From: Myxococcota bacterium
Lineage (GTDB): Bacteria; Myxococcota_A; Polyangia; HGW-17
NCBI GenBank assembly: GCA_018821745.1
Contig: JAHJLU010000009.1
Span: 1 to 36,197 of the forward strand
Direction: 5' to 3'
DNA length: 36,197 nucleotides
Below are positions 6,273 to 26,741 of this stretch, in pieces. The position numbers and the translations under genes were made by a program. Below the pieces are notes generated by a model. It did not search any database. It was not told the DNA's origin and saw nothing but the letters and a program-made list of their open reading frames with translations. How positions within the stretch are numbered: position 1 is the stretch's first letter; each line of letters opens with the position of its first letter.

Positions 6273-6308
6273 GCACTAAGGCCCGTCGGGGGGCGCGAAA
6301 GGACACAA

Positions 6309-8006
6309 ATGGCACAAAAACGCATCGTTATTATTGGCGGCAGCGCCGCTGGACCCAAAACCGCCGCCCGCGCCAGGCGACTGGACCAGAGAGCCCTCAT
6401 CACCCTGATTGAACGGGGGCCCGACCTCTCCATGGCTTCCTGCGGATACCCCTATTACGTTGGTGGTGTCTTCGACTCACGAAACTGCCTCATCGAGACC
6501 CCCACGGGGGTCCCCAGAAACCCGGGCTTCTTCCTCAACGCGAAGAATATCATCGCCAGAGTCAACTGCGAAGTAACAACCATTGATCGCGCTCAGCGCA
6601 CCGTCACATGCCGGAACACCCTCACGGGCGAGGTCGATGTGGTCCCCTATGACAAGCTCATGATCGCCACGGGTTCATCCCCGAGACTTCCCCCCCTGGA
6701 GGGGATCGACCTTGAGGGCGTCACCACCCTCCAGTCCATGAAGGATGCCGACTACCTGCGTGCCATCCGGGATGAAAGGCGTGTAAAAAAGGCCATCATC
6801 ATCGGCGGGGGTCTCATCGGTATCGAGACCGCTGAAGCGCTCCAGCTCGCGGGCATCGAGATCACCATAGTGGAGCTCATGGACCAGCTCCTCCCCTTTT
6901 TGGACTGGCAGTTGGCCAAACTGGTGGAGAACCACCTCAAGTCCAAGGGCGTCAATGTCCTCCTGGGGAACGGTGTGGCCGCATTCACGGGAGAGGCTGG
7001 CACGCTCACGGGCGTCAAACTCGCCAGCGGCACAGAGCTTCCCTGTGAGCTGGCGGTTGTAGCCGTTGGCGTAAAGCCCAGCTCCCAACTGGCAAAGGCA
7101 GCGGGGCTGGAGATCGGTGTCACCGGCGGGATCAAGGTCAACCATTTCATGGGGACCACGGACCCCGATATTTACGCCGCGGGGGACTGTGTGGAGATCT
7201 GCAACTGCATCACCGGTGCCCAAACCTACGCCCCCATGGGTGATCTGGCCAACCTCCAGGGTCGGGTCGCTGCGGACAACATCATCCTCGGCGACAGCGT
7301 CCAGTTCTCGGGGACCATCAACACCGGGATTTGCAAAATATTCGACTTCGCCGCGGGGGCCACCGGACTCACGGAGGCTGCAGCCTTGAAAGCAGGCTAT
7401 GACGTGGAGACCGTGGTCAACGCGAGCCCTGACAAGCCGGGGTTTATGGGCGCAAAGTTGCTGGTCTCCAAAATGGTGGTGGACAGAAAAACAGGAAAGC
7501 TTCTGGGATATCAATGCACCGGTCCCGGTGACGTGTCCAAGCAGGTCGCCCAGGGGGCCATGGCCATCCGAGGCCAACTGACCGTCGCACAGATGATGGA
7601 TCTTGATCTGCCCTATGCGCCCCCCTTCTCTCTGGCAATTGACCACTTCATTGCCTCGGCTCACATAATGGACAACAAGCTCAAGGGCCGCATGAGCGGT
7701 ATCTCCACCCGACAGGTCCGGGAGATGCAGTGCAGGGGCGAGAAGGGAACCTTCTTCCTGGATGCCCGCGGTCCCGACGAGTTCGAGGCCATGCGCCTGG
7801 GAATCGGGGAGGTCCTCATCCCCCTGGGCGCCCTGAGGAAAAGACTGGGTGATCTGCCACCTGACAAAAATCACCCCATTGTCTGTTACTGCAAGATCTC
7901 CCTTCGGGGATATGAAGCCGCGCTCATTCTCATGGACGCAGGCTATACCAATGTTCGCGTCATGGAAGGCGGCATCATGGCCTGGCCCTTCCCACGGGAA
8001 AAATAG
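6309..8006 (+). CDS. FAD-dependent CoA-disulfide reductase/NADH oxidase family enzyme fused to a C-terminal rhodanese domain (persulfide/polysulfide reductase-like)
   Basis: ATG at 6309 follows AAAGGA. Motifs present: FAD fold IVIIGGSAAGPKTAARA, redox Cys in SMASCGYPYY, second dinucleotide fold AIIIGGGLIGIETAE, and rhodanese active-site loop CYCKISLRG near the C-terminus. Confidence 0.92.
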   Translation: MAQKRIVIIGGSAAGPKTAARARRLDQRALITLIERGPDLSMASCGYPYYVGGVFDSRNCLIETPTGVPRNPGFFLNAKNIIARVNCEVTTIDRAQRTVTCRNTLTGEVDVVPYDKLMIATGSSPRLPPLEGIDLEGVTTLQSMKDADYLRAIRDERRVKKAIIIGGGLIGIETAEALQLAGIEITIVELMDQLLPFLDWQLAKLVENHLKSKGVNVLLGNGVAAFTGEAGTLTGVKLASGTELPCELAVVAVGVKPSSQLAKAAGLEIGVTGGIKVNHFMGTTDPDIYAAGDCVEICNCITGAQTYAPMGDLANLQGRVAADNIILGDSVQFSGTINTGICKIFDFAAGATGLTEAAALKAGYDVETVVNASPDKPGFMGAKLLVSKMVVDRKTGKLLGYQCTGPGDVSKQVAQGAMAIRGQLTVAQMMDLDLPYAPPFSLAIDHFIASAHIMDNKLKGRMSGISTRQVREMQCRGEKGTFFLDARGPDEFEAMRLGIGEVLIPLGALRKRLGDLPPDKNHPIVCYCKISLRGYEAALILMDAGYTNVRVMEGGIMAWPFPREK

Positions 8007-8016
8007 GAGAATTTAT

Positions 8017-8385
8017 ATGAAAATTGCTGTACCTGTAGAAAACGGAGTCCTCTCAGCCCACTTTGGTCACTGTGAGCACTTTGCCCTCATCACCGTAAAT
8101 GAAGCGGGAGTCATCACAGAAGAGGAGTCTGTGGACGCCCCCCAGCACCAGCCCGGTCTCTTTCCACGCTGGCTCTCCAGCCTGGGAGCCGACGTGATAA
8201 TCGCCGGCGGCATGGGACAGATGGCCCGCCAGCTCTTTGAGCAGAACAACATCGAGGTGGTGGCAGGCGCTCCCACCCAGGCGCCGAAAACGCTGGTGGA
8301 ATCCTTTATCAAAGGCACCATGGGAACCAATGACGCCCCCTGTGAAGGTGGCCACGGCCACGGAGGGGATTGCGGCGGCCACTGA
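8017..8385 (+). CDS. NifB/NifX-family (dinitrogenase FeMo-cofactor-binding-like) small protein with Cys/His-rich tail
   Basis: ATG at 8017 is 6 nt after AGGAGA and 11 nt after the upstream stop. The sequence MKIAVPVENGVLSAHFGHCEHFALI...DVIIAGGMGQMARQLF is typical of the NifX/NifB C-terminal-like family. The tail reads CEGGHGHGGDCGGH. Confidence 0.85.
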   Translation: MKIAVPVENGVLSAHFGHCEHFALITVNEAGVITEEESVDAPQHQPGLFPRWLSSLGADVIIAGGMGQMARQLFEQNNIEVVAGAPTQAPKTLVESFIKGTMGTNDAPCEGGHGHGGDCGGH

Positions 8386-8422
8386 GCCTTTTACCGCTTT
8401 CGCTAATCACCCTTTTACGGTA

Positions 8423-9031
8423 TTACCAGGCAGCAGAAGGGACCCCTATTCCTGCCCTCCTCCGGATCGTTTCCATATGAAGTTTTTTCAGAAATCTGGG
8501 GAGATTTCTCCAGATTCGGTGATACCCGTAGCCACCCTTCTTCATCTCCCGGATAGCCTCTTTTTTCGACCACCCCTGCACGGCAACCCGGTACACGGCC
8601 ACCATGACCCCGGTCCTGTCCGCACCATGTTGACAATGGACCAGCACCGGGGTTTTGGAAGGGTCGTTGACAATTTTCAGGAACCGCACCACGTCCTCCA
8701 CCTCGGGGTGCCACGCCTTCACCTGGATGTGCTCATGGAACAGTCCCGTCCCGGTGAGTTTGTCCGTGTCCGAGTGGAGCGCTCGAAGATTCACAACGGT
8801 CTTGATGCCCATGCGTTTCGCCTCACGCATCCCTTCGGCGGTGGGCTGGGCACTCCGGTACAACACGGGAGATACCCGATGCAGATTGGGAAGCCCCGGC
8901 CGGTTCAGTTCCCGAGCCCAGCTGCCGGGTCTGTCAGAAGAGCCTCTGCGGGAACTCTCATCTGAAGAAGAGGAGACCGGGGAACAGTTGAAAAACAAAA
9001 CAATACTGAGGAGAGAAAAATATTTGGTCAT
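8423..9031 (-). CDS. Secreted dual-specificity/tyrosine phosphatase-like protein (HCX5R)
   Basis: The N-terminus is a signal peptide (MTKYFSLLSIVLFFNCSPVSS). The P-loop VLVHCQHGADRTGV matches the HCX5R(S/T) signature. GGGAG lies 5 nt upstream of the ATG. The start is 16 nt downstream of the giant ORF stop on the same strand. Confidence 0.85.
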   Translation of the reverse strand: MTKYFSLLSIVLFFNCSPVSSSSDESSRRGSSDRPGSWARELNRPGLPNLHRVSPVLYRSAQPTAEGMREAKRMGIKTVVNLRALHSDTDKLTGTGLFHEHIQVKAWHPEVEDVVRFLKIVNDPSKTPVLVHCQHGADRTGVMVAVYRVAVQGWSKKEAIREMKKGGYGYHRIWRNLPRFLKKLHMETIRRRAGIGVPSAAW

Positions 9032-9047
9032 GGGTACTCCCGATGTT

Positions 9048-12000
9048 TTACCGTTTGCTGCTCAAATCCTGCAGAAGGGGCTTCACAACATAGGCAGGGG
9101 AGGGAACCGCCTCCACAAACCCCATTCTCACCAACTGGAGAATCGGTTCAGTGAGCTCGGGAACCTGAAAAATAGCCCCCGTTTTTATGGATATTAACAG
9201 ACTAAGGGCCGCCTCACCACCTACCATCGGGGCAAGGGCCATGTGGAGTTCCATCACCTGATCCTCCGCCTTTTGCCCCTTGAGCGAGGCAATCCTCTTT
9301 ATGGTCTCGGTGGGCACTTCAATTCCCAGGGCTCTTGCCTCCTCATAGATTGCCGCGAGGGTCGCCATATCATTTCGCAGCCGATCATGCTCCATCTCCA
9401 CAAATGAGTCGAACTGATCCGCGTCCTTCTGACGATCGGGGATATTGTACACATGCTGTTTGCTCCAGACTCCCCCGGGCCGTGGAATGGGCGGTCTGAG
9501 CGGGAGCGGGGGAGCGTGATCCATTTCGCTTTGCACCGAAGCTACAGAACTCATGGCCCCCATGGAACCCGTCGACCCCTCAATGGGCAGTGGGAAAAAG
9601 CCCGTGGCGGTGGGAATGATGGCCAGAGCGAAAAAATGGTCGGGATAGTCTATCATCCCCTTTTGTGCCAGCCACCCCGTGGCCGCCACAGAAGGTATGC
9701 CCAGGTGACGCAACAGCTCAATAGCCATGGAGTTCAACTCGTAGCAAACACCACGGCCCAGATGATGTCTGCTTTTTCCCGCGTGGAGGATGGCCAGGTG
9801 GTGATTTCCCTTTCCCTTCTTGAGGTTTGACATGACCCGTATCACCTTCTCGTTGCGTTTGAACTGGAGATCATAGATATAGCGAGACTGGACAAACTCC
9901 TGCACTGCCATGGCCTTCTCCCACAGAGAGCGACCCGATTTTTCCATGCGGGCCAGCCATGCCTGTACCTCAATGGGAAGCTTCATCCTCTTGAGTGCAG
10001 GCCTCGTGAGGTCTGAAAAGGCGGAAGGCGCGGTTGTCTCTTCCCCCATGGAGGGCACCTGATACAGCTCCACCTCGTACTGGATGGTCACACTCCCGTG
10101 TGAAGGCACATCCATGGTGATGATGTTCCCTTCCTGCTTCACCCCTATGGCCACCTGTTCTCCCCCGATCACCTCGGGAAAGGCTGCGAGTTTCGAGAAG
10201 AGAGGAACGGGCAGAACACTCCTCCCGGGCATTACCCGACCCTCGAAGAGGACCCTTGCCCCGGTAGTGTGCAGCGTGATTCCTCCCTGGAGGTCTCGGG
10301 GCACATTGGCGGAGGTCCAGACCTGACTGCCCCGATGAAAAGCACCCGCGGCAACATGGATCATGTAACAGTAGGGCGACGGGAGGGCCGCAGGGGAGTA
10401 TGCCAGCCGCACAGCGGGAGGTTGTCGGGAAATGGCTCCAACCGTGTCATGGTTTGCCCAGAGTTGGGAGGGAATATTCTCCCGGGGGGCGAGACAGTTG
10501 GCCCCTTTTCTTGCCCATGCGGGTAGGTCTTCATAAACCACAATATTTTGTTTTTCCTTATCTTTTCCAGATATCCAGCCGAAGAGATTCCATCCTCTCC
10601 CGGAAGGTTCTTCATGGACTTGAGGGGAGACCATCACATCATCGGGGCCCGTGGACACGTTCGTGGAGTGATCCCACGAAGGGTCATCGGGCATTGGTTC
10701 AACTCCCCGGCGTTGCTGGTGCTCCTCACGGCGGGTGAGACCATCCCCGGTGACCCGGTGGCCAAACTTCTGCCCAAAGGTGTGCATCAGATCTGCCAGG
10801 TCCTCCCTCTCTTTGTCGGTCATGACGAGGGACGGCCGATCATCATGGGGTGCGGACACAGACATGGACGGCAGGGGTGCCAGCTCATGAAGGGAGGGGG
10901 CCAGATGCCCGAAAACCTCCGGGGGGATGTCGTTGAGAGTGGGAGCTGTCAGCACGGCGGTCATGGCCTCCACGAGGCTCTCTCCCGGGGAGAGCACTCC
11001 CGCCGCTTCCAGCAGAACCAGCGCGACCGTAGCCATTGCTGCGTCGCCATCATGCTCTGCCTGCTTTGTGATCCGGGACAGCAGCCCGGCCTCTCTCCAG
11101 GGAGTGAAATCTGCTCCCCGCAGCTCGGGATACCCCTCCCTGAGACGCTGGTGAATACCATAATCCAGAACGTCACGAATTCGCCCCTTGAGTGGATGAT
11201 CCTCACCAGAACCCGCACTGATGGCCTGGGGAAAATGTCGCAAGTCCATATAGGCGGACATCCGTTCCCGGGTTCTGTGGGGAAGCACCAGCTCGATGAT
11301 ATCCACCAGCATCTCCTCGGATCGCCCCGTGTACAATGCTGGAATGAGCCCCTGTGCGAGCCCGCTGGAATGGTTTTGGGGTTCTGCCAGCACCTTTTCA
11401 TCCACCAGAAGTACTTTTTGCTTCCGATCATAGATGGCGTCCACGGACTGGGTAACGGAGCCAACACCGGAGAGAACATACTGGACCTTGAGATCCGAAT
11501 AGACTTCGACCGCCCGGTGGTCCAGCACCTCCCTGATCCGATGATAGGCCCACCCTTTTTCATCAAGATCATCACGCTTTCTTTCAATTCGGGGCATACA
11601 ATACCAGAGCGCGTCCAACTGACTCACCAGGGAACTGATGTGGCCCGCCCATTTTTCCGTGACACAGACCTGATCAGCGTTATGCTCAATGGTGTATGCC
11701 TCTCGGAGTCGCCGAATCTTCATCAACTGGTAGAATCGGCTGATATGTTTCTGGTCCTCGGGAGGACCATCCATGGTCAGGAACAGCTCGCCGGTGTCAC
11801 GAAACAGCGCCTCCAGCGTTGGCGTGTCGCTCACGAGGAGCCGCGGGTTGTCACTTGAGACAAGAACGTGGGCACCCTGAGGGTCTGCGATGGCGCGGGC
11901 CAAAATACATGGGGTGTTCTGTGGTCCTCCCTCTTCCCGTGCTCCCAGCCAGGCATAGCAGGAGAGCAGCATGCGGGAGAGGGCGTGATCACCCGAGAGC

Positions 12001-14687
12001 ACGCCGGAAGACCCGCTCTCTGTCACCCCGTCACCAATCTCCCTGAGAAAGTCCCTGACTCTCTGGGGGGTCAGAGTGGCCGCGATGCCAAACTGCCGCG
12101 CAAGAACCGGACAGGACGCTAATCCCCGCTCCCAGTACCCCCATCGGTTGCCGAAAAGCTGCAGTGCCCTGACTCCCACTACCCTCTTGTGGTTGTAAAA
12201 TTCACCATCATCGGAGCAGATCCAGGTCGCACCCTCCATGATTGACGCAAGCTCTCCTCCATTTATCCACCCCTCCTTGAGACCCAGATCTATCCACTGG
12301 TAGACTCTCAGCGGAAGAATTTTATGATCTCTGGAGCTATACTCAATGTACCGAACAACCTCCATAAGACTAATATCCTTGTCGGTTTTTAAATTAAGCG
12401 CTCCAAATACCCGCTCCCCCAGGAGCTCTTTCATCCGTGGATCAGGGAAGAGATCAGGAGAATCACCGATGAGCACTTCCACCTCCAGGGACCGCCTGTA
12501 GAGTTCACCGGGTCGCTTGATCACTGTGCTGCCACTTAAGAGCCAACGAGAAGCCTCCAGGGAGAGCTCCAGCGCTTTTTCATTCAATTCTCCCAACAGG
12601 GCGGCCAGGGAGAGCGCCCATTGTGTGTTTCCAGGGCCATTGATCAACTGATCCTCGAAGAGGGAGAGCGCCGGCAATTGCGGCAGATCAAGCTCTCTGA
12701 GAGCCATTTTAATGTCCTGGGGGTAACGCTCAACACTCACCATGTGGAGATCTTCTTTAAACACCGTGGTCAGATGGGGACACAGGTTTTCCGGGGGGAC
12801 GCAACAGCTGCCCAGCGGTGCAAACGAACCATCGGAGCATTCAAGAAGAATCCCCGGCTCACGGAAAACCTTTTTGTGATGCTCCCTGGGAAGATTTCTC
12901 AGCGCCCAGGTGAGAAGCATGGCCGCTTCTTGCGGGGAATTTGCTGAACAGACCGCTCTGTATTTGGGTAAAAAGTGTTCCTGGACCAGGGTGAGGGGGT
13001 CAGGCCGCCCGATCCCCAGATGGCGCTCCAGCAGGGAAATGCACTGGGAAGGAATCCGCGGGTGGGGGATCCAGTCCATTCCCAGATCCGGCAGCTCTTT
13101 ATGGGTTACCAGCGCCGTGGGCACCTTGAAGGTCCCCAGGGTTGTGGGAAAAAGGGGAAGCTGCAGGAGAACGGCACAGTTTTCTTCAATGGAGAAAAGC
13201 TCCCGCTCGCTGGCAATGATCCACTGGAAAAATCTGTCCGGGGTGTCTCCCTCCCGAAACCGGACCAGGGTTTGGGGCCGGGCTATGAACGCTAAAACCT
13301 CGGTCATGGAGAGGTCGGGCAGTTTTTCTCTGACGGCAGGGTCGAGCAGAGAGAAAAAGCCGTCATGGGCCAGGCGGGAAGCCAGCGTGGTCTCCCCGAG
13401 AAGGGAGAGAGTCGCGACAGAGCACTTGCTGAGCCCGTGAGTAACCAACCGGGAGGCTCCATTGACAGCCAGCGGGAGAGAATCAAGGGGAGTTTTTCTT
13501 TCAAGACCCATCAGGAGATTCACAAAACCGGCACACTTCTCCACGCTGTTCAAAAAGGAGCGCTGATTCACAAGGCTCTCATCGTTCTCGACAAAGCGAC
13601 CAAGGAGTTCCTGTGTGCAGGGGATCATCCCGCTGAAGGTAAAAAGCGACCCAAATTCATTTGCGAATTGTTCTGCCGCCGGGGTCAGAGTGAGGCGGGC
13701 CACCAATTCCCATTCGGGGGACCCTTCCTCCATCAACGCAAGCAGCTCTCGACCCACAATTCCCTCACTGGCGGAGACCGTGACATTTCCCAGAGTGGGA
13801 AACAGCGGCAGGAGGTCAAGATTAAGCAGCTCTCCCTCCTTTACTGCAGTGACAAGTTCCGCGCGCCTCTCGACCAGAACTCCCAGAATCCCTGGATAGC
13901 AATCCAGGGGCAGGGGAGAACCATGGGCCACTTCATTGTGCAATAAAAATTGCTGGAGAAGCTTCACACATTTTACTACGGTAAAGGGGGCCACTGAGAG
14001 GGCCTTGAAATAGGCTCCCACGGACTCTTGATTACCCCCTCCATAGATGGGGACCAGTGGCTGGACGATGAAACGAAGGGGCTCCTCAACCAGATAGGTG
14101 CGCCCCGAATCAAAGGGAAGTGCAGGATCTCCGGGCGGTCGCAAGTTTCCCCTCGTGTCGGGGATGAGGGGTAATCGGAGGCACTGGTTCACATCTGTAC
14201 CGCTGAGGGTTGGGACTGATCCGGAAAGAAAATCCAGGATTTTCCAAAGATTGTTCACAACTTTGGGTAAAAATGGGTGGTCTTCTCCATTGGGCTTATT
14301 GCATGCCTCCTCCAGATGGGCGATGAAGGTCGCCGCAGTGAGCATAAGACACTGATCCGTAAGGTGCAGCTCTCGAACCAATCCGCCAGAGACCGATTCG
14401 GGATCAAGAAAATGGGTGGAAAAAAGCTCCCCATAAAGGGACTTCAGTTGATCTGAATCGCACGCGGCAAGAGTCGAGAGCGTATGAAGATCCCCCTTCT
14501 CACACAAAAAGGCCTCTGCCCCCGCAAGAATCTGGGCACTCTTTCCGTGGATCAGTGCTCTCTTCTCGTACAGAAACTGTATGACCGCATGGATATTCTC
14601 CGGTGTTGGGACAATAAGCAATTCAGCGGAACCGACCCTGGCCAGAGCACCGATGATGGCCGCAACCCCGACGCTCTCGACCCCCAT
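9048..14687 (-). CDS. Giant (1,879 aa) cytoplasmic repeat protein with C-terminal transglutaminase-like cysteine protease/transglutaminase core
   Basis: The frame is uninterrupted with coding-like G/C third positions. About 8 repeats of ~105 aa fill aa 170-950. The transglutaminase-core signature is GRGVCYELNSMAIELLRHLGIPSVAATGW...DHFFALAI (Cys1648 codon 9746..9744, His1684 codon 9638..9636). No signal peptide or TM segment is present. The ATG directly abuts the stop of the upstream GHKL ORF. Confidence 0.85.
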   Translation of the reverse strand: MGVESVGVAAIIGALARVGSAELLIVPTPENIHAVIQFLYEKRALIHGKSAQILAGAEAFLCEKGDLHTLSTLAACDSDQLKSLYGELFSTHFLDPESVSGGLVRELHLTDQCLMLTAATFIAHLEEACNKPNGEDHPFLPKVVNNLWKILDFLSGSVPTLSGTDVNQCLRLPLIPDTRGNLRPPGDPALPFDSGRTYLVEEPLRFIVQPLVPIYGGGNQESVGAYFKALSVAPFTVVKCVKLLQQFLLHNEVAHGSPLPLDCYPGILGVLVERRAELVTAVKEGELLNLDLLPLFPTLGNVTVSASEGIVGRELLALMEEGSPEWELVARLTLTPAAEQFANEFGSLFTFSGMIPCTQELLGRFVENDESLVNQRSFLNSVEKCAGFVNLLMGLERKTPLDSLPLAVNGASRLVTHGLSKCSVATLSLLGETTLASRLAHDGFFSLLDPAVREKLPDLSMTEVLAFIARPQTLVRFREGDTPDRFFQWIIASERELFSIEENCAVLLQLPLFPTTLGTFKVPTALVTHKELPDLGMDWIPHPRIPSQCISLLERHLGIGRPDPLTLVQEHFLPKYRAVCSANSPQEAAMLLTWALRNLPREHHKKVFREPGILLECSDGSFAPLGSCCVPPENLCPHLTTVFKEDLHMVSVERYPQDIKMALRELDLPQLPALSLFEDQLINGPGNTQWALSLAALLGELNEKALELSLEASRWLLSGSTVIKRPGELYRRSLEVEVLIGDSPDLFPDPRMKELLGERVFGALNLKTDKDISLMEVVRYIEYSSRDHKILPLRVYQWIDLGLKEGWINGGELASIMEGATWICSDDGEFYNHKRVVGVRALQLFGNRWGYWERGLASCPVLARQFGIAATLTPQRVRDFLREIGDGVTESGSSGVLSGDHALSRMLLSCYAWLGAREEGGPQNTPCILARAIADPQGAHVLVSSDNPRLLVSDTPTLEALFRDTGELFLTMDGPPEDQKHISRFYQLMKIRRLREAYTIEHNADQVCVTEKWAGHISSLVSQLDALWYCMPRIERKRDDLDEKGWAYHRIREVLDHRAVEVYSDLKVQYVLSGVGSVTQSVDAIYDRKQKVLLVDEKVLAEPQNHSSGLAQGLIPALYTGRSEEMLVDIIELVLPHRTRERMSAYMDLRHFPQAISAGSGEDHPLKGRIRDVLDYGIHQRLREGYPELRGADFTPWREAGLLSRITKQAEHDGDAAMATVALVLLEAAGVLSPGESLVEAMTAVLTAPTLNDIPPEVFGHLAPSLHELAPLPSMSVSAPHDDRPSLVMTDKEREDLADLMHTFGQKFGHRVTGDGLTRREEHQQRRGVEPMPDDPSWDHSTNVSTGPDDVMVSPQVHEEPSGRGWNLFGWISGKDKEKQNIVVYEDLPAWARKGANCLAPRENIPSQLWANHDTVGAISRQPPAVRLAYSPAALPSPYCYMIHVAAGAFHRGSQVWTSANVPRDLQGGITLHTTGARVLFEGRVMPGRSVLPVPLFSKLAAFPEVIGGEQVAIGVKQEGNIITMDVPSHGSVTIQYEVELYQVPSMGEETTAPSAFSDLTRPALKRMKLPIEVQAWLARMEKSGRSLWEKAMAVQEFVQSRYIYDLQFKRNEKVIRVMSNLKKGKGNHHLAILHAGKSRHHLGRGVCYELNSMAIELLRHLGIPSVAATGWLAQKGMIDYPDHFFALAIIPTATGFFPLPIEGSTGSMGAMSSVASVQSEMDHAPPLPLRPPIPRPGGVWSKQHVYNIPDRQKDADQFDSFVEMEHDRLRNDMATLAAIYEEARALGIEVPTETIKRIASLKGQKAEDQVMELHMALAPMVGGEAALSLLISIKTGAIFQVPELTEPILQLVRMGFVEAVPSPAYVVKPLLQDLSSKR

Positions 14688-17612
14688 CTACTTCACGTGT
14701 GATCGTGAAGCCACCTCGGCGTGGAGAAACACTCCCCCTCGAGGGCCCGGGGCAAAAAAGGCCCGCACCCCTTCCTCCATGGGAATAAACACCGCCTCCT
14801 TACCCGCGAGGGGTCGCCCTGCTGCATGCTCATCAGGCCAGATCGGCAGTTTGACCAGCTCCTTTCGCTCCGTGGATGAGAGCTCATCCCTCCCCTCCTC
14901 CAGCAGGCCATGGAGACGAAGCAGAACATCGGGCGTGAGCCGGGGACCGAATCCTTCCTGCATATCCCGCACGAAGGTAGTGAGCGACAGGGCATGAATA
15001 TTGAGCTGCCTCATGATGATTCCCGTGGGGGAATCTTCAGAAACCTGGGGACAAATGACGGGTCGAACTCCCTGGTAGAGTTGGGCCAGACCCCTGGAAA
15101 GGTCAGAGTCACCCGTCCTCAGGGCACCTTTCCGATCCGTAATGTTCCTTGCCAGCGGATAATAGAGACCGTCCATGGCCAAGAACACGGGCAAAGCCGC
15201 CAGACGTATCAGTAAATCACGGTTTTCTTCACAGGCGATGGTGAGGACCAGATCGAGCCGCTCTCTGGTCTGTATCAACTCGACCTCCTCGAGTGAACGA
15301 AGGGGCGGTTTTATCTCCCTGAGTTGTCCCGAAAGATCCTGGATCAGCCGGGCCGTCGTCAGGACATTAACCCCAAGTAAATCAATCAGGTGAGCGCCCT
15401 GGGGTAAATAAGCAGAGTCACCGCGGGCCTCCGGGTCAAATCGTGGATGGACAAAGGAACAAAACCCCTCATACAGTTGGCGCAACGGAGCACTTCCCCT
15501 GAACACACCGGAGTCCCCGATGCTCACCAGCCCACCGCCGGAATCCAGCACCAGGGGCAGTTTTTTCAACTCCTCCAGGATACTAGATCGCTGGGCTTTG
15601 TTGGAGGCCAGCTCATGGAGAAACAGGGTGTAGACAGCGTCCATGGTCTCCCATGATGGATTGTGGAGGAAATGTTCCCGGGGAATACCCGCGGTCCCAC
15701 CGGCCAGCAGCACCTTGAGGTGATCAAGGAGATCACGGACACCAAAGCTTTTTACGCCAAGGAATTTACCCACCTCCATCTGACGCTCGGACAGACGGGG
15801 ATCGGCAAAATAGATTGCAGTCCCCTCCTGCCAGAGGAGATCTCCCACCAGACGGGAAATTTCAGGGGTGGTCACTCTGAGCTCCCCAGGGCACCTCAGG
15901 ATACCCCGCTGGTCGGGAATGAGGGCACGGTCAGCCAGCTCCCGGTGGAGCGTCACCGGGATGGTTTTAAATACAGGGGCATTGAGCTCGTGGGGCAAGG
16001 GAAGAATATCCAGAAAGCCCAGCGCCCTCTCCAGAATTTCCGATTCTTCCCCACCCAGAGAGAGCAGAGTCTCCCGAGCCTTCAGCAGGAGCTCAGGGAC
16101 CTTGGAATTAATCCATCGATTCCAGGCGGAGTCGGAGTCTATGCGCTCCCTGTCAACGGGCACATCAAAGTGTCCCTGTAAAAAGAACCTCAGCCCGGAG
16201 TGCTCCCCCGTGGGGAGATAACTGTAGACGGTGGAATCCAAGGGTTCCAGCGGACAGGGCACTCCGGTATCGCTGCACCGAATACCAATCATAACGCCTG
16301 TTGAATCGGGTTTTCCTGCCTGTCTCTGGAGGCCGCTGCACGAATAGTCATTATCGCACACCAGATAATGGGAGACGGCTCCCGATGGCTCCTGCACAAT
16401 GGAAGATATCGCCCGCTCGCCACGATTAATTTCGTGAATCGCATGGGTCCCGGGTCCCCCCGCATCCTGATTAAGCTCCAGCTCGATATGATCAATACTC
16501 TTGAGGGTAAAGAGCACCACGGGATCAAGCGCACATGCTTTCTCGAAGAGAGCAGACGCGCTCCGGAACTGATCGTCCGGGTTTTTCAGGGGCAATAGCA
16601 GGAGTGTCCCATCCGGAGGATACCCCTCAGGCCTCATTGCGAGGGTTTTTGGAATAGAAACATCCACAATTTCAAATTGATAAGCTCCTGAATACAGTTG
16701 AGGCCGCTCTGTGACCTCGTAAATGGATTTGAACCCCACGCCGAAAAAGCCAATCTGGGATTTGCTTTTGGTGGTCTGCCCTATGGAGGTGATTCCCACC
16801 ACATCCTTGGTGTCAAAGGGAGTCCCGTTGTGCCACACCGCTATCTGATCACGGGCGAAGTAGAGCCTCCACACCGTAGCACCCGAGTCTTCTGCATTTT
16901 GCAAAAGCTCAATGAGAAAGTGACCGGGATCCGTGTACACCTTCTTCGCCAACAGCTCCTCGGCATTGGACTGGGAGACCGCCTTGGGAAAATTGGAGAT
17001 TACCTGCACCGCACCAAGAGCGAGCTCCCTGTGGCGTTCCCGGAACGCCTGGACCACCTGTTGTCCCACCTGCTGCGAGAACTGCTCCAGCTGCATGATG
17101 GCCTCGGCTGAGAGCTGGGCGAGATGGTCAACGGTCAGGGATTCCAGACTCCCGGACTCAAGCCGGGACCGACAGGTCAAGAGGAGCTTCGAGAGATATT
17201 CGTCCCGCTCCCCGGGAAAATTGTGCTTCAGTGCCCTGTCTATCAGACACATGGAGGAGAGCTGCCGCAATGGCATAACCCCCATGGCTGCCGTTAAAAT
17301 TTCACAGAGCGCTCCACGATGCTCACGGTGCTCATCCACCACCTCCAGCATGGTTCTGGTAATTTTATTGACCGCTGTCTCGGAGCGCTCCACCAGAAAT
17401 CTGGCAAAATTCTGCCGGTTCTCCTCGGTACCGAAGTATCCCATGGTAAGCAGATGCCCAGCCAGCCACGAGAGGGGAGAGCTGTCTCGCACCGTAGCGG
17501 CAAGCTCCAGAAGGTGTTCGGGAGACTCCCGGGTGAGTTGATCTGTGAGCCAGTTGATCTGCCCCTTGAGAGGGAGGGATGAAAAAACCTGGTCCGGTTG
17601 CGCTTGGGTCAT
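14688..17612 (-). CDS. Sacsin/NO-VEIN-type GHKL (Hsp90-like, HATPase_c_3-like) ATPase with C-terminal repeat modules
   Basis: Bergerat-fold motifs are present: ELLQNAEDS (16910..16884), VWHNGTPFDTKDVVGITSIGQTTK, IGFFGVGFKSIYEVTERPQLYSG, and the sacsin-type YSYLPTGEHSGLRFFLQGHFDVPVDRERI. I prefer the ATG at 17612 (GAAGGGA upstream). The track start at 17663 would add 17 aa and has no RBS. Confidence 0.88.
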   Translation of the reverse strand: MTQAQPDQVFSSLPLKGQINWLTDQLTRESPEHLLELAATVRDSSPLSWLAGHLLTMGYFGTEENRQNFARFLVERSETAVNKITRTMLEVVDEHREHRGALCEILTAAMGVMPLRQLSSMCLIDRALKHNFPGERDEYLSKLLLTCRSRLESGSLESLTVDHLAQLSAEAIMQLEQFSQQVGQQVVQAFRERHRELALGAVQVISNFPKAVSQSNAEELLAKKVYTDPGHFLIELLQNAEDSGATVWRLYFARDQIAVWHNGTPFDTKDVVGITSIGQTTKSKSQIGFFGVGFKSIYEVTERPQLYSGAYQFEIVDVSIPKTLAMRPEGYPPDGTLLLLPLKNPDDQFRSASALFEKACALDPVVLFTLKSIDHIELELNQDAGGPGTHAIHEINRGERAISSIVQEPSGAVSHYLVCDNDYSCSGLQRQAGKPDSTGVMIGIRCSDTGVPCPLEPLDSTVYSYLPTGEHSGLRFFLQGHFDVPVDRERIDSDSAWNRWINSKVPELLLKARETLLSLGGEESEILERALGFLDILPLPHELNAPVFKTIPVTLHRELADRALIPDQRGILRCPGELRVTTPEISRLVGDLLWQEGTAIYFADPRLSERQMEVGKFLGVKSFGVRDLLDHLKVLLAGGTAGIPREHFLHNPSWETMDAVYTLFLHELASNKAQRSSILEELKKLPLVLDSGGGLVSIGDSGVFRGSAPLRQLYEGFCSFVHPRFDPEARGDSAYLPQGAHLIDLLGVNVLTTARLIQDLSGQLREIKPPLRSLEEVELIQTRERLDLVLTIACEENRDLLIRLAALPVFLAMDGLYYPLARNITDRKGALRTGDSDLSRGLAQLYQGVRPVICPQVSEDSPTGIIMRQLNIHALSLTTFVRDMQEGFGPRLTPDVLLRLHGLLEEGRDELSSTERKELVKLPIWPDEHAAGRPLAGKEAVFIPMEEGVRAFFAPGPRGGVFLHAEVASRSHVK

Positions 17613-17806
17613 GGCATGTTTCCCTTCGTTGGAATATTTTCCCTCCGACAGTGACACAATCATTGTAAATTTTCAATGCTCCGCCCCCCGCGATCTCTTT
17701 TCGAAACCCCGCTGTTTGGCAAAACGCCCCCACGGTGCAGAGAGAAACCCGTTTTTTCCTTTTTATTTATTTGTTGTCAGCGATTTGTGACTTCTGAGGA
17801 GGCGGA

Positions 17807-17835
17807 ATTATAAATATTTTTTACATAACTATCAA
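17807..17835 (-). promoter_or_regulatory. Sigma-70-like promoter candidate for the GHKL/giant-ORF operon
   Basis: The minus strand reads TTGATA (complement of 17830..17835), a 17-nt spacer, then TATAAT (complement of 17807..17812). The spacer region is AT-rich, so a chance match is possible. Confidence 0.35.
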
Positions 17836-18022
17836 TTTTGGATAACTGCGGGGTTCCATCCCCCCGAAGGGTTTGAACCGAAAAGAAATTACAATGTATT
17901 ATTAAATATTTATCACATCGAATGTCCCTACGGTGATAGTGAACCCTTTCCGTGGCTATTGTGGGTGAGATGTGCCATACAAAACCCAGACAAGTCTATA
18001 CTTAAACGAAGGAAGGTCCGAC

Positions 18023-18370
18023 ATGTCGCATTTTCGATGCTCCAAGTGTGATAATCTGCTCATTGAAGGGGAAAAAACCTGCTGGAATTGTGCCCAGAAG
18101 GTAACTTCCACCAATGTCGTCGACCGTAAAAAACTTGGTGACAGCGAGTTTGACTTTGACAGCGGCCAATTCGGCGACAGACAACCTGCAAGACCTGCTC
18201 CCGAGAGCGTCGAGCAGCGTTATTCCAAGCCCCTCGGCTATACCGATGACAGCAATTCCCAGGTGAGTCTTGCCCGGGAAGAGGAAGCCAAAAGGCGCAT
18301 GGGGGTCATCCGCTTTGTGGTGATCCTCTCGGTCATCATAGCTGCCGCTACCGTATTTATTTTGAATTAA
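18023..18370 (+). CDS. Zinc-ribbon protein with C-terminal transmembrane anchor
   Basis: ATG at 18023 follows GAAGGAAGG. The N-terminus MSHFRCSKCDNLLIEGEKTCWNCAQK has CxxC-N12-CxxC. The C-terminal helix is IRFVVILSVIIAAATVFIL. It is divergent from the GHKL operon. Confidence 0.65.
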   Translation: MSHFRCSKCDNLLIEGEKTCWNCAQKVTSTNVVDRKKLGDSEFDFDSGQFGDRQPARPAPESVEQRYSKPLGYTDDSNSQVSLAREEEAKRRMGVIRFVVILSVIIAAATVFILN

Positions 18371-18539
18371 GTCGAATTCCCGGGAGATGAGGAACAGCCC
18401 GCCGCCAGCACCAGGCAGAATAAGTAAACTCCCCTGTCGGGACAGGAGCAACTACGGGAGTTGACACTTTTTGGAAAAAACCTGCGGGTCAGGAATGTGG
18501 GCACGGGGACCCCGGGGGCCGTCGCTTACCCATACGTGG

Positions 18540-19139
18540 TCATAAATCGAGATCATCTTTACTCATATCCCAGTTCATTATTCGGGGCATGATCGGTTTC
18601 CCCGCCGTCCGGATTCTGGGGGGTCTCCGTATGCTACCCTTTCTTTGGGGCGGACAGCCATCCAGGGATCGAATGCCCTTTACCTTTGGGCATTTATCCA
18701 GAGAATCGGGGATCCCATCCTTGTCGGCATCTGCGGAAGACGCATTCATGGAATCCGCTGCAGGGGCCATGGTCACGGGGGGCTGTCCGACACTCTTATC
18801 GGGGGCCATTTCCACGATTACAGGGGGAGTTGCGGGAACTGTATCCTTTTGTTTCGGCCAGGAGACCACTCCCTTTTTGCGTATGATTTTGGGTTGAGGG
18901 CACCCATCGACCGTCATGGGAGCGTACTTCTCCGGGCAGCTATCTTTAATATCAGGGATACCATCTCCGTCCCTGTCCCGTTTCTGGGGAGGAGTCGCCT
19001 TCCCTTCCTGGGGGCCGGGATCACTGCATCCCCCCAGACAGAACCCTGCAAGGAGGGTCCCGCCCATGAAGAGATTCCGTGCGAGGGTGAGGGAGGGATA
19101 GGAAGGAGAGTATCGGTGATTGCTGCGCCTGAGTTTCAT
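18540..19139 (-). CDS. Lipoprotein with thrombospondin type-3-like Ca-binding repeats
   Basis: The lipobox is GFCLGGC. Two DxDxDGxxDxxDxCP repeats are present (DRDGDGIPDIKDSCP, DADKDGIPDSLDKCP). The start is uncertain (19175 TTG, 19139 ATG or 19067 ATG). Confidence 0.7.
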   Translation of the reverse strand: MKLRRSNHRYSPSYPSLTLARNLFMGGTLLAGFCLGGCSDPGPQEGKATPPQKRDRDGDGIPDIKDSCPEKYAPMTVDGCPQPKIIRKKGVVSWPKQKDTVPATPPVIVEMAPDKSVGQPPVTMAPAADSMNASSADADKDGIPDSLDKCPKVKGIRSLDGCPPQRKGSIRRPPRIRTAGKPIMPRIMNWDMSKDDLDL

Positions 19140-19369
19140 GATGGAACCTGTGATTTTCCGTTGAGCCAGTATCAATGGTTCACACTACCCAAATTCACCA
19201 GCGGCGTCAATTATACTGCCGCGAATCAGCGCACGTTTCGTTGACTTACGGATAGCTTCAACTATAAAGGTGATTGCTCTACAAGCGGATAGTCGCTCAT
19301 GGGCAAAAACCAATTATATAATTTATTTTATTAGCTTTTTTCAAAATAACCCGTGAGCTTTGGTTCTGC

Positions 19370-20221
19370 ATGTTCAATCGATTTGATGTTTTTCTGAGAA
19401 AACTGTCACCGCTCATGGTTACCCTCATCTCCATTTTCATGGTGGTGATTCTGGCCCTGGTGGATCATCTCACGGGCTATGAAGTCTCATTCTCCGTGTT
19501 TTACCTGGTCCCCATCACCCTGGCCACCTGGTACGGAGGATTTTTTCATGGTACTCTCATCAGTTTTCTCAGCGCCATGGCATGGATCCTTGTGGACTGG
19601 TCAGCGGGACGACATTACAGTCACAGCCTGATTCCGGTCTGGAACGGGGGAGTGCGCTTCGGGTTTTTCCTGATCACCGCCGCATTGTTATCCCGCCTTA
19701 CTGCCCAACTGGAGAGGGAACGCAACACGGCAAGGCTCGACGGTCTCACGGGAATCATGAACAGCCGGGGGTTCCGGGAGGCCGCCGCCTCTGTGTTTTC
19801 CGTTGCAAGAAGATACAACCGACCGCTCTGCATCGGATACATCGATCTGGACAATTTCAAATCCGTGAATGACTCTCTGGGTCACTCCGAAGGCGACCGG
19901 GTACTCAGAACCGTGGCCACAACCCTCAGAAATTCATTGCGAAACGCTGACTTAACAGGACGCCTCGGGGGTGACGAGTTCATTGTTCTGTTGCCCGAAA
20001 CAAATCAGGAAGGCGCCAGCACGGTTTTTTCCAATCTTCGAACCAACCTCCTCGCCCAGGTGGAATCGAGCAAATGGCCCATTGGCTTCAGTGTGGGAGT
20101 TGCCGTCTTCACGCAGGTTCCGCAAAACATCGATGAGGCTGTCCGGTATGCCGACGGGCTCATGTATCGGGTGAAAAACGGCGGAAAAAACAATATCCTC
20201 TTCGAAGTTATCACTCCGTAA
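19370..20221 (+). CDS. Membrane-bound diguanylate cyclase (GGDEF) with intact I-site
   Basis: Roughly four N-terminal hydrophobic helices precede a GGDEF domain (DGLTGIMNSRGF, RLGGDEFIVLLPE). An RxxD I-site (RNAD) lies 5 residues upstream of GGDEF. Confidence 0.92.
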   Translation: MFNRFDVFLRKLSPLMVTLISIFMVVILALVDHLTGYEVSFSVFYLVPITLATWYGGFFHGTLISFLSAMAWILVDWSAGRHYSHSLIPVWNGGVRFGFFLITAALLSRLTAQLERERNTARLDGLTGIMNSRGFREAAASVFSVARRYNRPLCIGYIDLDNFKSVNDSLGHSEGDRVLRTVATTLRNSLRNADLTGRLGGDEFIVLLPETNQEGASTVFSNLRTNLLAQVESSKWPIGFSVGVAVFTQVPQNIDEAVRYADGLMYRVKNGGKNNILFEVITP

Positions 20222-20370
20222 AAATCTTTTGCTGCTCCTCGCCTCCAATACGCGCACTCTCGTGCTTTCCTTTGAGGGCAAATTCTGATACAAGTGCCCC
20301 GCACCCCGGGTCCTCATGAAACGGGACCCTTGGTGCCCCTCACCTCTTGTAACGAGAGGATCCATATACA

Positions 20371-20406
20371 GGGCCCGGGTCCCAAGGGACCCGGGCCCCC
20401 TTTTTT
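20371..20406 (+). terminator. Rho-independent terminator
   Basis: A perfect 12-bp GC-rich stem pairs GGGCCCGGGTCC (20371..20382) with GGACCCGGGCCC (20387..20398) around the loop CAAG. It is followed by CC and TTTTTT (20401..20406). It lies 150 nt downstream of the diguanylate cyclase stop. Confidence 0.7.
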
Positions 20407-20506
20407 CCTTGTTCAGTTTTTCTCACCGCATGCATTGTATAAAGAATCCTAGACCACATGCCACACACGTGGCCTTCAAGCGGATATAACAACACACGCT
20501 TGATGA

Positions 20507-22114
20507 CTATGACTGGGGGACCCCACCCGCTCCTGACCCCTGCAGGAGGAGGCTGCCGGAGCGGATATCCCGGTATTCACCGTCCGCAACCTTCATGGCA
20601 CCTCCCACAAAGAGAAACCTGAGTCCCGTATGTTCTGACTCACTTCGGGGCAGGTGGAAATCGGGGCCGAACAGTGCGAGATCTGCGATGGCACCCTCCC
20701 GGATCACCCCTCTGTCGGTGAGTCCCAACCTTCGGGCGGGAACCGAGGTCATCTTGGCCACGGCACTTTCCAGGGAAATGAGTTTTCTTTTAAAGACAAA
20801 ATCATTAATAATTTTGGGAAAACTACCATAATTGCGAGGGTGTGGAATACCGCCGGGGAGGCTGTCCGTGCCCACCATGGAACCATCGTGGAGAAATATG
20901 GCCTCCACCAACTGCTCTTCCATGTATCTGTCGGTCATGCGTACATTCCCCCCCTCACGCTGCAGAAGCCCAAGAAGAAAGCGCACGGGAGAGATGCCTC
21001 GGTCAGCAGAGGCCTTCGCCATACTGAGACCGATGAGCGAAGTTTCGTGTTGCAAATCGGTTATAACAATATTCTCCCACCCCACAAGCGCAGGCAGGTT
21101 GTCCCAAGGTGTGCCAGGCGGCAAAGACCGGGCTTCCGAAAGAATCAATTCAACTTCTTGAATTACGGACTCCTCAGACAATGTCAGCAACACCTCGGGA
21201 AGTGATTTGTGTGCAAAAATATGCGGTGGAATAAGAGAGAGGAGGGTTGTGCTGCCGAAGTTAAAGGGATACTGATCAAAGGAGAGCCCGTGGTGGTCGA
21301 TTCTGGTGAAGAGTTCTTTCAGTTTTGCGCTGTTTCGTTCGCCAATCACTTTCAGGTGGGAAACATGAAGGACCTCCGGATGTTTACCAGCAAGCCGGAT
21401 CAGTTCATCCATGGCCTCCACAATCTCGTCGCTCTCGCTTCTCATGTGAACCGCTACCATTCGGCCATGGGCTGCTGCCACATCAAAAACCCTCTGGAGT
21501 TCGTCTTGATCCGCAAAGAGAGCCGGCAAATAAATACGTCCCATGCTGACACCCACCGCTCCTGCGGCAAAACATTCTTCAAGAGCCTGTGTCAGGGCAT
21601 CTCGCTCATTCGTGGTGAGTGGGCCCGTGCTCAATGGAGCCACGAACTGGCGCAGAACTCCGTGGGGGGCGAAGGGGATGAGGTTGTGTTCCAGCCGTCT
21701 CGTCCGCAGGGCGCTCAGATACTCATCGAAGCGCTCCCAGTTCCACGGTGCACCAGGATCACCGAAAATAAGTCTCCTGCGAAACCCGGGGCGCTCCAAA
21801 GCGGTAACAGGTGCCACTCCGAGCCCACACACGCCAGTCACCTCGGAGGTGATCCCCTGCATAATTTTTTGGCGCATTCCCTCCTCAAGAAAAGGAGCCA
21901 GGTCCGTGTGAGAGTGGGTATCAATAAAACCGGGTGTGAGAAAACCCCCGCCTCCGTCAATCGTTACTCCCTCATCACTGCAAATGCCACCGCGCCGGAC
22001 ACGAGCGATACGATTGCCTGTAACAAGCACCTCCCCTAAGTAGGGCGGGGCTCCGGTTCCATCCACGATCACAATATTTGATATTCGCACCATGGGGTTT
22101 TCAAATGGATACAA
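20507..22114 (-). CDS. N-acyl-D-amino-acid deacylase (D-aminoacylase) family amidohydrolase
   Basis: The N-terminus reads IVIVDGTGAPPY...GNRIARV...IDGGGGFLTPGFIDTHSHTDL (HxH metal site). Length and architecture are typical of the family. The start is ambiguous (TTG 22114 or ATG 22093). Confidence 0.88.
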   Translation of the reverse strand: MYPFENPMVRISNIVIVDGTGAPPYLGEVLVTGNRIARVRRGGICSDEGVTIDGGGGFLTPGFIDTHSHTDLAPFLEEGMRQKIMQGITSEVTGVCGLGVAPVTALERPGFRRRLIFGDPGAPWNWERFDEYLSALRTRRLEHNLIPFAPHGVLRQFVAPLSTGPLTTNERDALTQALEECFAAGAVGVSMGRIYLPALFADQDELQRVFDVAAAHGRMVAVHMRSESDEIVEAMDELIRLAGKHPEVLHVSHLKVIGERNSAKLKELFTRIDHHGLSFDQYPFNFGSTTLLSLIPPHIFAHKSLPEVLLTLSEESVIQEVELILSEARSLPPGTPWDNLPALVGWENIVITDLQHETSLIGLSMAKASADRGISPVRFLLGLLQREGGNVRMTDRYMEEQLVEAIFLHDGSMVGTDSLPGGIPHPRNYGSFPKIINDFVFKRKLISLESAVAKMTSVPARRLGLTDRGVIREGAIADLALFGPDFHLPRSESEHTGLRFLFVGGAMKVADGEYRDIRSGSLLLQGSGAGGVPQS

Positions 22115-22132
22115 GAGGATCTGTTCTTTTTT

Positions 22133-22936
22133 CTAACTGTATAGCTTCGTTGTTTTATTGTAGGAGGCGAGGATCCCCTGGATCATGGCGCTTGAGAACC
22201 CCTGGTGCTCCATGGTGTTGAGCCCCGTGATGGTGCTCCCCTTGGGAGTGGTGACCTTATCGATCTCCGTCTCGGGGTGGTTCTCCATCTCATCGAGCAG
22301 CGCCGCCGCGCCTTTGGCTACCTGGGCTGCCAGAGGAATTGCCTGGTCGGGATGGAATCCGATCTCAATCCCGCCCTGGGAAGCGGCACGTATCGCCCTC
22401 AGGAAGAAGGCGGTCCCGCAGGCACACAGCACCGTGGCAGGCACCATCATCTCTTCAGTGAGCACCATACATTTGCCCACGTAGCCGAAGAGCTCCATGG
22501 CCAGTGCCAGCGCCTCGGGAAGCTCCCGGTCATAGGCGACACAGGTCATGGACTCTCCGATAGCCGCGGCGGTGTTGGGCATGATCCGGATAACCGGATT
22601 TTCCTTGCCGGTGAGCTTCCTTACGGTGGCACAGGAGACTCCGGAGACCACGGAAAGGATAATGTGATGGGGTGCAAGATGGGGGGCCAGCGACGCAAAC
22701 AGGCTGTCGACCTGCTGGGGCGTGACCGCCACGATCAGCACCAGGGCGTGGTCGAGAGCCTGAGCATTGTCCGTTGTGGCCGTAAATCCCATGGCCTCAA
22801 GCTTCTTGCGAGAGTGGTCGCTCCTGGTGGTAACCATGAGGTTCTCATTGGAAAAATCCTTGGCGCGGCTGAGCCCTTTGGCGATGGCAAGGCCGATATT
22901 TCCACATCCTATGATGGCGGTTTTTTTATTGAACAT
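22133..22936 (-). CDS. proC: Pyrroline-5-carboxylate reductase
   Basis: AGGAGG lies upstream of the ATG at 22936. The NADP fold is KTAIIGCGNIGLAIAKGL, and the C-terminal motif TTPKGSTITGLNTMEHQGFSSAMIQGI is present. Confidence 0.92.
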   Translation of the reverse strand: MFNKKTAIIGCGNIGLAIAKGLSRAKDFSNENLMVTTRSDHSRKKLEAMGFTATTDNAQALDHALVLIVAVTPQQVDSLFASLAPHLAPHHIILSVVSGVSCATVRKLTGKENPVIRIMPNTAAAIGESMTCVAYDRELPEALALAMELFGYVGKCMVLTEEMMVPATVLCACGTAFFLRAIRAASQGGIEIGFHPDQAIPLAAQVAKGAAALLDEMENHPETEIDKVTTPKGSTITGLNTMEHQGFSSAMIQGILASYNKTTKLYS

Positions 22937-22966
22937 TCGGCCTCCTATGGGGCTGAAAAGGGGAGA

Positions 22967-25295: not shown

Positions 25296-26741
<1,446 letters not shown>

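Follow-up and report, generated by a model that had tools for sequence, protein, structure and literature searches.

In gene pairs coupled by termination-reinitiation the arrangement is conserved, and the products are often subunits of a complex (PMC6728339, PMC10666635), and reinitiation works at spacings of -8 to +10 nt in E. coli and Haloferax (PMC10666635). A junction of similar appearance lies within the window analysed here, a 36,197-nt stretch of contig JAHJLU010000009.1 (GCA_018821745.1, Myxococcota bacterium). On its minus strand, ORF A (14691..17663, or 14688..17663 with its stop) comprises 991 codons from the first ATG and is closed by an in-frame TAG at codon 992 (14690..14688), which is directly followed by the ATG (Met993, 14687..14685) of ORF B (9048..14687; 1879 codons plus TAA). 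The junction reads ...CAC GTG AAG TAG ATG GGG GTC..., and the sequence agrees with the initial annotation that stop and start share a frame with no spacer. The database gene call of ORF A (P0001) uses a start at 17612 (MTQAQ...) and has 974 aa. Both ORFs lie in one frame with 0 nt between them, and readthrough would give 2,871 sense positions. With a probability of about 0.9, we consider ORF A and ORF B to be the N-terminal part and the C-terminal two-thirds of one ancestral gene of ~2,870 codons (9048..17663, minus strand), the frame of which is unbroken but for this one TAG, cut by a GAG-to-TAG change that is either a young nonsense allele or a consensus error.

Two assemblies of this population are present in the databases searched, and the intact allele was located in the second one, GCA_018819465.1 (a Myxococcota MAG), via protein cluster membership. 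Of the 18,925 bases compared, 18,922 are identical to the window. Codon 992 is GAG (Glu) in the sister assembly and the ORF is continuous (…SRSHVK-E-MGVESVGV…), TAG and GAG being separated by a single G/T difference at window base 14690. The encoded protein P0162 (MBU1239653.1, 'hypothetical protein, partial [Myxococcota bacterium]'; 1298 aa), a member of the 90% cluster of P0001, reads ...SRSHVKEMGVESVGV... and runs 324 aa beyond the junction, up to the contig end. Its contig (L006, JAHJPZ010000386.1) aligns to window 25581..13720 with 3 mismatches in 11,862 aligned bases and 0 gaps: a synonymous ACC/ACT difference at 23723 and a Leu87Phe difference at 22678, both ordinary C/T sites, and TAG/GAG at 14690. 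Two more contigs of GCA_018819465.1 are 100% identical to window 10999..13662 and 6243..10641. The genome and metagenome contig sets searched gave no match to an exact junction pattern in which the stop codon was set to NNN. An intact allele is present in a near-identical genome that differs by one base at the stop, as expected of a nonsense allele.

When a 754-aa query over the junction was used in a word-indexed protein search, the window's own protein alone was returned, and an exhaustive HMMER search with a junction-spanning query was therefore used, which gave 347 matches. Among the matches listed, most are 2,250-3,000 aa long and run through the junction as a single stretch, and none starts or ends at it. 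Fifty-one (51) homologues can be aligned over the junction without a gap, and residues 700-1300 (600 around the junction) are covered as a single HMM domain in at least 72 distant homologues. A 601-aa fragment became scattered when aligned with full-length homologues, and pasted segments were aligned instead. Over its full length, the gene is collinear with 28 intact homologues of 2,400-3,100 aa. The single ancestral frame of about 2,870 codons that the initial annotation had proposed is thus borne out by the intact sister allele and by homologues continuous over the junction. That annotation had named orthologues always occurring as two separate genes with a spacer as evidence against it; instead, the homologues are single genes (mostly single proteins), the closest 'orthologue' is fused, and GAG occupies the TAG position in the sister assembly.

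All homologues carry a sense residue at the stop site, a variable, polar column (D12, R9, E5, A5, S3, T3, Q3). Of the 51 homologues, 28 have Leu and 15 have Met in the Met993 column, and most of the closest ones are among the latter. Since Met is found in the intact sister allele and in these 15 homologues, the ATG is, on the evidence of the alignments, an ancestral internal Met codon and not an evolved start codon. ORF B is without decay: 92 of 104 family-conserved residues (88%) are kept, which falls in the range seen for intact homologues (median ~0.88).

The TAG lies inside a tandem array of diverged alpha/beta repeats of ~106-128 aa (13047..15866, minus strand; fused residues ~600-1539). 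When the family alignment of fused residues 960-1090 was compared with the rest of the protein by hhalign, in-register copies were found at ~600-742, 721-877, 854-984 and 1067-1202 (probability 95-97%), with weaker ones at 1413-1539 (80%) and 1190-1320 (60%). The proposal that a repeat straddles the junction survives this profile test. The segment HVK*MGVESVGV is in register with VGKFLGVKSFGV, LIDLLGVNVLTT, IMRQLNIHALSL, LVRELHLTDQ and YFKALSVAPFTV, in agreement with the earlier placement of the stop at the variable position just before an [L/M]-G-[V/I] motif. The motif examples given for that placement hold in part: the proximal ones are in register, whereas the two distal ones (residues 1547 and 1856), although in register, are not significant (hhalign probability 0.6-3%). 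The repeats were detected by profile-profile comparison alone; BLASTP of ORF A against ORF B gave no significant repeat (best E 0.02), and the repeats have no Pfam match. Mis-assembly by DNA repeats is disfavoured, because no repeats are detectable at the DNA level. The AlphaFold2 model of residues 700-1300 (pLDDT 89.5) displays a recurring secondary-structure pattern, and independent folding is predicted for the initial 112 residues of ORF B (pLDDT 88.9). Foldseek searches against the PDB returned nothing significant for the 601-residue model (best E 0.03) or for a single repeat unit (best E 3.3), and a winged-helix resemblance is not supported on this account.

The predicted product is a giant sacsin-like GHKL/repeat/transglutaminase-like protein of ~2,870 aa, with an N-terminal helical region followed by a sacsin/TmtA-like GHKL ATPase, an array of ~110-130-aa repeats and a C-terminal transglutaminase-like domain. 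ORF A is matched by Pfam SACS (PF25794; aa 243-334, 54.6 bits, cut-off 32.8), by NCBIfam P_loop_sacsin (NF047352; aa 248-323, 76.7 bits, cut-off 50) and by the PDB sacsin entries 5v44-5v47. The GHKL ATPase module (15501..16985, minus strand; ORF A aa 227-721) resembles the N-terminal portion of TmtA, a component of the Tiamat defence system (PADLOC model PDLC03972, E 6.5e-45). The likeness to sacsin-like GHKL ATPases and TmtA thus resides in an N-terminal Bergerat-fold ATPase module that is matched by all three profile sets. In contrast to a full-length TmtA, only the first ~500 positions of the best profile are matched (22-517 of 1302), PADLOC has no match to the repeat array of ~1,000 aa or to the transglutaminase-like C terminus (none was found in ORF B), and the gene lies among housekeeping genes with no obvious defence island.

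The transglutaminase-like core (9660..9932, minus strand; ORF B aa 1586-1676, GVCYELN ... PDHFFA ... PIEGST) matches Pfam Transglut_core at 23.5 bits (cut-off 23). Of the Cys-His-Asp triad, the Cys and His columns are conserved throughout the family; at the third, acidic position this protein and P0006 have Glu, where most others have Asp. A consensus scan found a promoter-like site, TTGATA-17-TATAAT (17807..17835, minus strand; 11 of 12 matches), upstream of ORF A and no comparable site before ORF B. A dual-specificity/tyrosine phosphatase gene (8423..9031, minus strand; Pfam PTP-NADK, Tc-R-P and DSPc) lies 16 nt downstream of ORF B, with the same arrangement in the sister assembly, and is probably in the same operon. 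Proteins of this kind form a widespread family of ~2,400-3,000 aa, annotated as 'hypothetical' in every named member looked up. The gene may merit separate attention. Its family, which is uncharacterised, joins a sacsin/TmtA-like ATPase, repeats that lack a solved structural counterpart and a transglutaminase-like domain.

The TAG is an ordinary recent nonsense mutation or a base-call error, not a programmed split. Of the options raised in the initial annotation, it is the recent nonsense mutation or assembly error that the evidence supports, the sister allele being GAG. We propose that the G-to-T change at 14690 is a nonsense allele of very recent origin that segregates in the population or, failing that, a consensus/base-call error. 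If the allele is real, translation would stop after residue 991 and the product would be a GHKL fragment with three repeats. The adjacent AUG, at 0-nt spacing and lacking a Shine-Dalgarno motif, could permit some termination-reinitiation, yielding the 1,879-aa remainder. Such reinitiation is plausible for the TAG allele, and the restart would be an accident of the mutation's position rather than an evolved arrangement.

We consider a real allele somewhat more likely than an error, by about two to one, because the assemblies also differ at two other ordinary SNPs. A pure artefact, with GAG in the organism itself and the T at 14690 produced by a consensus or base-call error, is nested in the same option and is a possible but less favoured account. 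It would fit a sister assembly that has G at 14690 and is otherwise almost identical, an ORF B that has not decayed at all, and a G-to-T change, which is a known signature of library damage (e.g. oxidative damage). However, position 14690 lies well inside its 36-kb contig, away from any homopolymer or repeat, consensus errors are rare at well-covered bases, and the two C/T differences between the assemblies point to real strain-level variation. Two observations run against the preferred reading of a recent stop or base error as a whole. The position of the ATG hints at a survivorship filter, with a stop being tolerated where translation can restart: an ATG falls right after the stop for 14 of 887 (1.6%) possible single-base nonsense changes in the ORF, and an ATG, GTG or TTG for 6.5%. 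The break is also near a structural unit boundary, given the predicted independent folding of the 112 residues at the start of ORF B, and might be tolerated there. It is conceivable, though improbable, that the TAG is a genuine allele, common in one population, that translation restarts at Met993 and that both halves are made and reassemble. If true, this would be gene fission at its first step, enabled by an ancestral Met codon that opens a self-folding repeat unit.

The initial annotation had preferred a fixed split gene using termination-reinitiation. In such an established, selected arrangement the two halves would be separate subunits made in a fixed ratio by termination-reinitiation at UAG-AUG. 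The 0-nt spacing is inside the -8 to +10 nt range (PMC10666635), the promoter-like site is upstream of ORF A only, ORF B opens with a repeat that is predicted to fold alone, and a hairpin spans 20 nt before the AUG. This hairpin is a perfect 7-bp stem (CTTCACG-ATCACA-CGTGAAG; 14691..14710, minus strand), the 3' arm of which directly abuts the TAG; its significance, judged post hoc, is uncertain. The hairpin predates the stop, because the same sequence is present in the sister GAG allele, and a quasi-palindrome (hairpin-templated) origin of the mutation was rejected, since templating would yield CAG, not TAG. The argument that an ATG exactly after the stop is unlikely by chance, and favours a split gene, stands as far as the arrangement is uncommon (1.6%), but the ATG, too, is older than the stop. 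Moreover, no Shine-Dalgarno-like motif is present in the 15 nt upstream of the ORF B ATG, no family member is divided at this site, and the intact allele occurs in a genome that differs at 3 of 18,925 bases. With GAG in the sister assembly and 51-72 homologues continuous, the split has not reached fixation even in this one population. The sister allele largely refutes this reading, which we regard as very unlikely.

Still less credible is programmed TAG readthrough or recoding (by a suppressor tRNA, pyrrolysine or reassignment) to give long and short isoforms, the remaining option of the initial annotation. The in-frame arrangement would fit it, and nothing else was found in its favour. The stop is not kept in the sister allele, the local RNA fold around the junction is no better than that of shuffled sequence (z = 0.10), and the window contains no tRNA gene and no match to an Rfam family. 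TAG is also the commonest stop in the window, ending 10 of the 22 ORFs taken as genes, ORF A included; the other nine include SecA, AdoHcyase and P5CR. Codon reassignment was discarded, as TAG serves as an ordinary stop there.

In summary, the two protein records deposited for this contig are best handled as pieces of a single gene, and the locus offers a caution, in that an ATG after an in-frame stop looked like design, yet was an ancestral internal Met. The locus resembles termination-reinitiation coupled pairs (PMC6728339, PMC10666635) in its adjacent stop and start and in its operon-like look. In contrast to such pairs, neither the sister genome nor any homologue has this arrangement, and its start codon goes back to an ancestral internal Met. 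The likeness to an ordinary nonsense-interrupted gene comprises a single-base sense-to-stop change, an intact allele in a near-identical genome, no other lesions, and a nearby in-frame AUG that could serve for restart. The locus differs from that model in that the restart codon is at 0 nt and the break is near the start of a repeat unit, because of which the fragments might stay partly functional. What the contig shows is either a premature stop or an erroneous base, seen in one assembly of this MAG population.

ORF A, a GHKL ATPase ORF (14688..17663, minus strand, 991 aa), and ORF B (9048..14687, minus strand, 1879 aa), both from the mechanical ORF list, meet at the minus-strand sequence ...CAC GTG AAG TAG ATG GGG GTC..., in which an in-frame TAG (14690..14688) is followed directly by an ATG (14687..14685). 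Translation of 17663..9048 in one frame contained one internal stop only and, together with the window sequence, confirmed the coordinates, common frame and zero spacer reported for the two ORFs. In the database, ORF A (P0001) is called from a start 17 codons further downstream (MTQAQ..., 974 aa). Two proteins, of 974 aa and 1,879 aa, are deposited from the contig; they are pieces of one gene.

The decisive evidence comes from P0162, a second sequence that clusters with ORF A at 90% identity (MBU1239653.1, 'hypothetical protein KJ865_08070, partial [Myxococcota bacterium]', 1,298 aa), which reads ...EVASRSHVK-E-MGVESVGVAAIIGAL... across the junction and runs 324 residues past it, as far as the contig end. 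Its contig, JAHJPZ010000386.1 (11,862 bp) of the sister assembly GCA_018819465.1, is syntenic with the window and aligns to 25581..13720 with three mismatches and no gaps: ACC/ACT at 23723 (synonymous, Thr431 of a 682-aa unknown gene), Leu87Phe at 22678 in the P5C reductase gene, and G versus T at 14690, giving GAG (Glu) in place of the TAG. Two more sister contigs are 100% identical to 10999..13662 and 6243..10641, and the differences at 22678 and 23723 are the sole ones besides 14690 over 18.9 kb of comparison. Of these three differences, two change a protein, a pattern to be expected if the variation is very recent or if errors are involved. Since the sister contig is near-identical and carries GAG, the same population possesses an uninterrupted allele, and GAG is the ancestral state because the corresponding column in homologues is mostly acidic or polar (D12, R9, E5, A5 and others). 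The sister assembly splits into separate contigs inside the giant gene, at 13663..13719 and 10642..10998, through both of which the window assembles; strain heterogeneity or low coverage may account for these breaks.

We searched 1.84 billion proteins (50%-identity representatives) exhaustively with HMMER, using a 1,200-aa query centred on the junction with X at the stop, and obtained 347 matches at E <= 1e-3. The closest relatives are only 33-38% identical and are single proteins of about 2,400-2,970 aa, aligned in a single stretch from query position 1 to about 1,197, through position 600; two homologues looked up individually (P0003 and P0005) are single genes. Among the matches listed (149, with P0001 left out), 82 are 2,250-3,000 aa long and none starts or finishes at the junction. 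The site is fused in relatives as well as in the sister allele: it is gap-free in a local alignment of 51 homologues, and a profile of residues 700-1300 of the fused protein (ORF A and ORF B read through the TAG) matches as a single domain in 72 homologues over >80% of its length. One irregular member (L002, 1097..8559 of Logan assembly SRR23617199) is frameshifted at another place, yielding ORFs of 836 aa and 1,658 aa that overlap by 25 nt, the new one starting about 50 residues upstream of the junction-equivalent position; it is another sporadic interruption of a very long gene.

Profile-profile self-comparison detected a tandem array that extends to either side of the junction, repeats every 106-128 aa or so and is in register with the motif noted by the initial annotation, so that its proposal of a repeat straddling the stop holds. 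The AlphaFold2 model of fused residues 700-1300, built with 19 homologue rows, was confident (pLDDT 89.5) and places the stop position in a short ordered coil (pLDDT 92-94) that links the end of a helix to the strand-helix beyond the [L/M]-G-V motif. Modelled by itself, the N-terminal 112-residue stretch of ORF B was likewise predicted with confidence to fold (pLDDT 88.9, pTM 0.78), which places the break close to where a structural unit begins. A Foldseek search of the PDB found no significant counterpart for the array or a single unit.

The giant ORF pair is thus shown to be one gene, one base from an intact allele, with a split that is not conserved. We infer that the TAG either arose very recently as a nonsense allele or reflects an error in the consensus, as the initial annotation allowed among its options, and we put the odds in favour of a real allele at about 2:1, given that two ordinary SNPs also separate the assemblies. 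DNA-level repeats able to cause a mis-join were not found. A fixed split gene using termination-reinitiation, the option originally favoured because an ATG after the stop seemed improbable, is contradicted by the GAG of the sister allele and by homologues unsplit at the junction. The improbability itself stands, as of the 887 single-base changes that could create a stop only 14 (1.6%) would put it directly before an ATG, but the argument built on it does not: the ATG encodes Met in the intact sister allele, and among the 51 homologues this column has 28 Leu and 15 Met, most of the closest homologues having Met. The ATG was therefore not made for the purpose, and its adjacency is luck or a survivorship effect and no evidence that a start codon evolved here; it lacks a preceding Shine-Dalgarno-like sequence.

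Programmed readthrough of the TAG, giving long and short isoforms, likewise lacks a conserved arrangement. The window contains no tRNA genes or Rfam families, and the 141 nt around the junction did not fold more stably than shuffled controls (z = 0.10). As a normal stop, TAG is used more often in the window than any other codon, ending 10 of the 22 ORFs taken as genes (ORF A and nine more, SecA and AdoHcy hydrolase among them), which also counters TAG reassignment. A perfect 7-bp hairpin (CTTCACG-ATCACA-CGTGAAG, 14710..14691, minus strand) has its 3' arm ending on the base that immediately precedes the TAG/GAG codon; it predates the stop, since the GAG allele has the identical sequence, and may either impede ribosomes that start independently at the AUG or be a chance feature (10 such hairpins in the ORF versus about 4.4 expected).

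A real TAG allele would end translation after residue 991, and a ribosome ending at UAG could restart at the adjoining AUG to produce the remaining 1,879 aa. Termination-reinitiation has been shown to work where cistrons overlap or lie very close together, -8 to +10 nt being taken as permissive and a spacing of about 20-38 nt nearly abolishing it (PMC10666635); given this range, an accidental rather than programmed restart is plausible. A good promoter-like site lies upstream of ORF A only. To judge from its sequence, ORF B has not decayed: of 104 family-conserved residues, 92 remain (0.88; 155 of 166 in the upstream part), within the range of intact homologues, and it is collinear with them to its end, with Cys and His retained in the transglutaminase-like core. 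A stand-alone copy starting within the repeat array (P0145, 1,901 aa, L003 6001..11706) has neither the GHKL ATPase part nor an ATPase gene upstream, and a natural ATPase-less version therefore exists.

The uncharacterised giant-protein family is a separate lead and more interesting than the stop codon. Its members are bacterial proteins of roughly 2,400-3,000 aa with an N-terminal helical region, a sacsin/TmtA-like GHKL ATPase, a repeat array and a C-terminal transglutaminase-like core; the ten looked up in clusters, from Myxococcota, Planctomycetota, Obscuribacterales and Ozemobacteraceae MAGs, are unnamed or 'hypothetical protein'. A Cys-rich insert follows the core in P0013 and P0026, the former with an extra Prok-RING_1 match. 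The giant gene sits among chromosomal genes of ordinary kinds (SecA, sigma-54 activator, ribosomal protein S1, GidB, AdoHcy hydrolase, P5C reductase, Ser/Thr kinase). A dual-specificity/tyrosine phosphatase gene (8423..9031, minus strand; Pfam PTP-NADK, Tc-R-P, DSPc) lies 16 nt downstream of the giant gene in both the window and the sister assembly, and a signalling link is possible; homologue locus L004 has an FHA/TPR protein gene there instead. The P5C reductase gene and an adjoining unannotated gene (575-682 aa) occur near the giant gene in the window (22133..25015, minus strand) and in the distant L005 (426..3064), a weak conserved synteny.

Compared with known systems, the TAG-cut locus belongs with ordinary interrupted genes. 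Conservation of the arrangement defines fixed splits and coupled pairs as well as programmed readthrough, and the TAG-ATG site does not have it; a nonsense allele is defined by an intact allele one base away, which is present here. ORF A is a sacsin-type GHKL ATPase (Pfam SACS, 54.6 bits; NCBIfam P_loop_sacsin, 76.7 bits) that also matches the crystallised sacsin ATPase domain, and TmtA models of the Tiamat defence system match its residues 227-721 (E 6.5e-45). In ORF B, only the transglutaminase-core profile matches, marginally and near the C terminus (23.5 bits versus a cut-off of 23); neither PADLOC nor PDB sequences gave a match. The best TmtA profile is covered over the first ~500 of its 1,302 positions only, and the giant-gene family resembles both sacsin and TmtA only in part.
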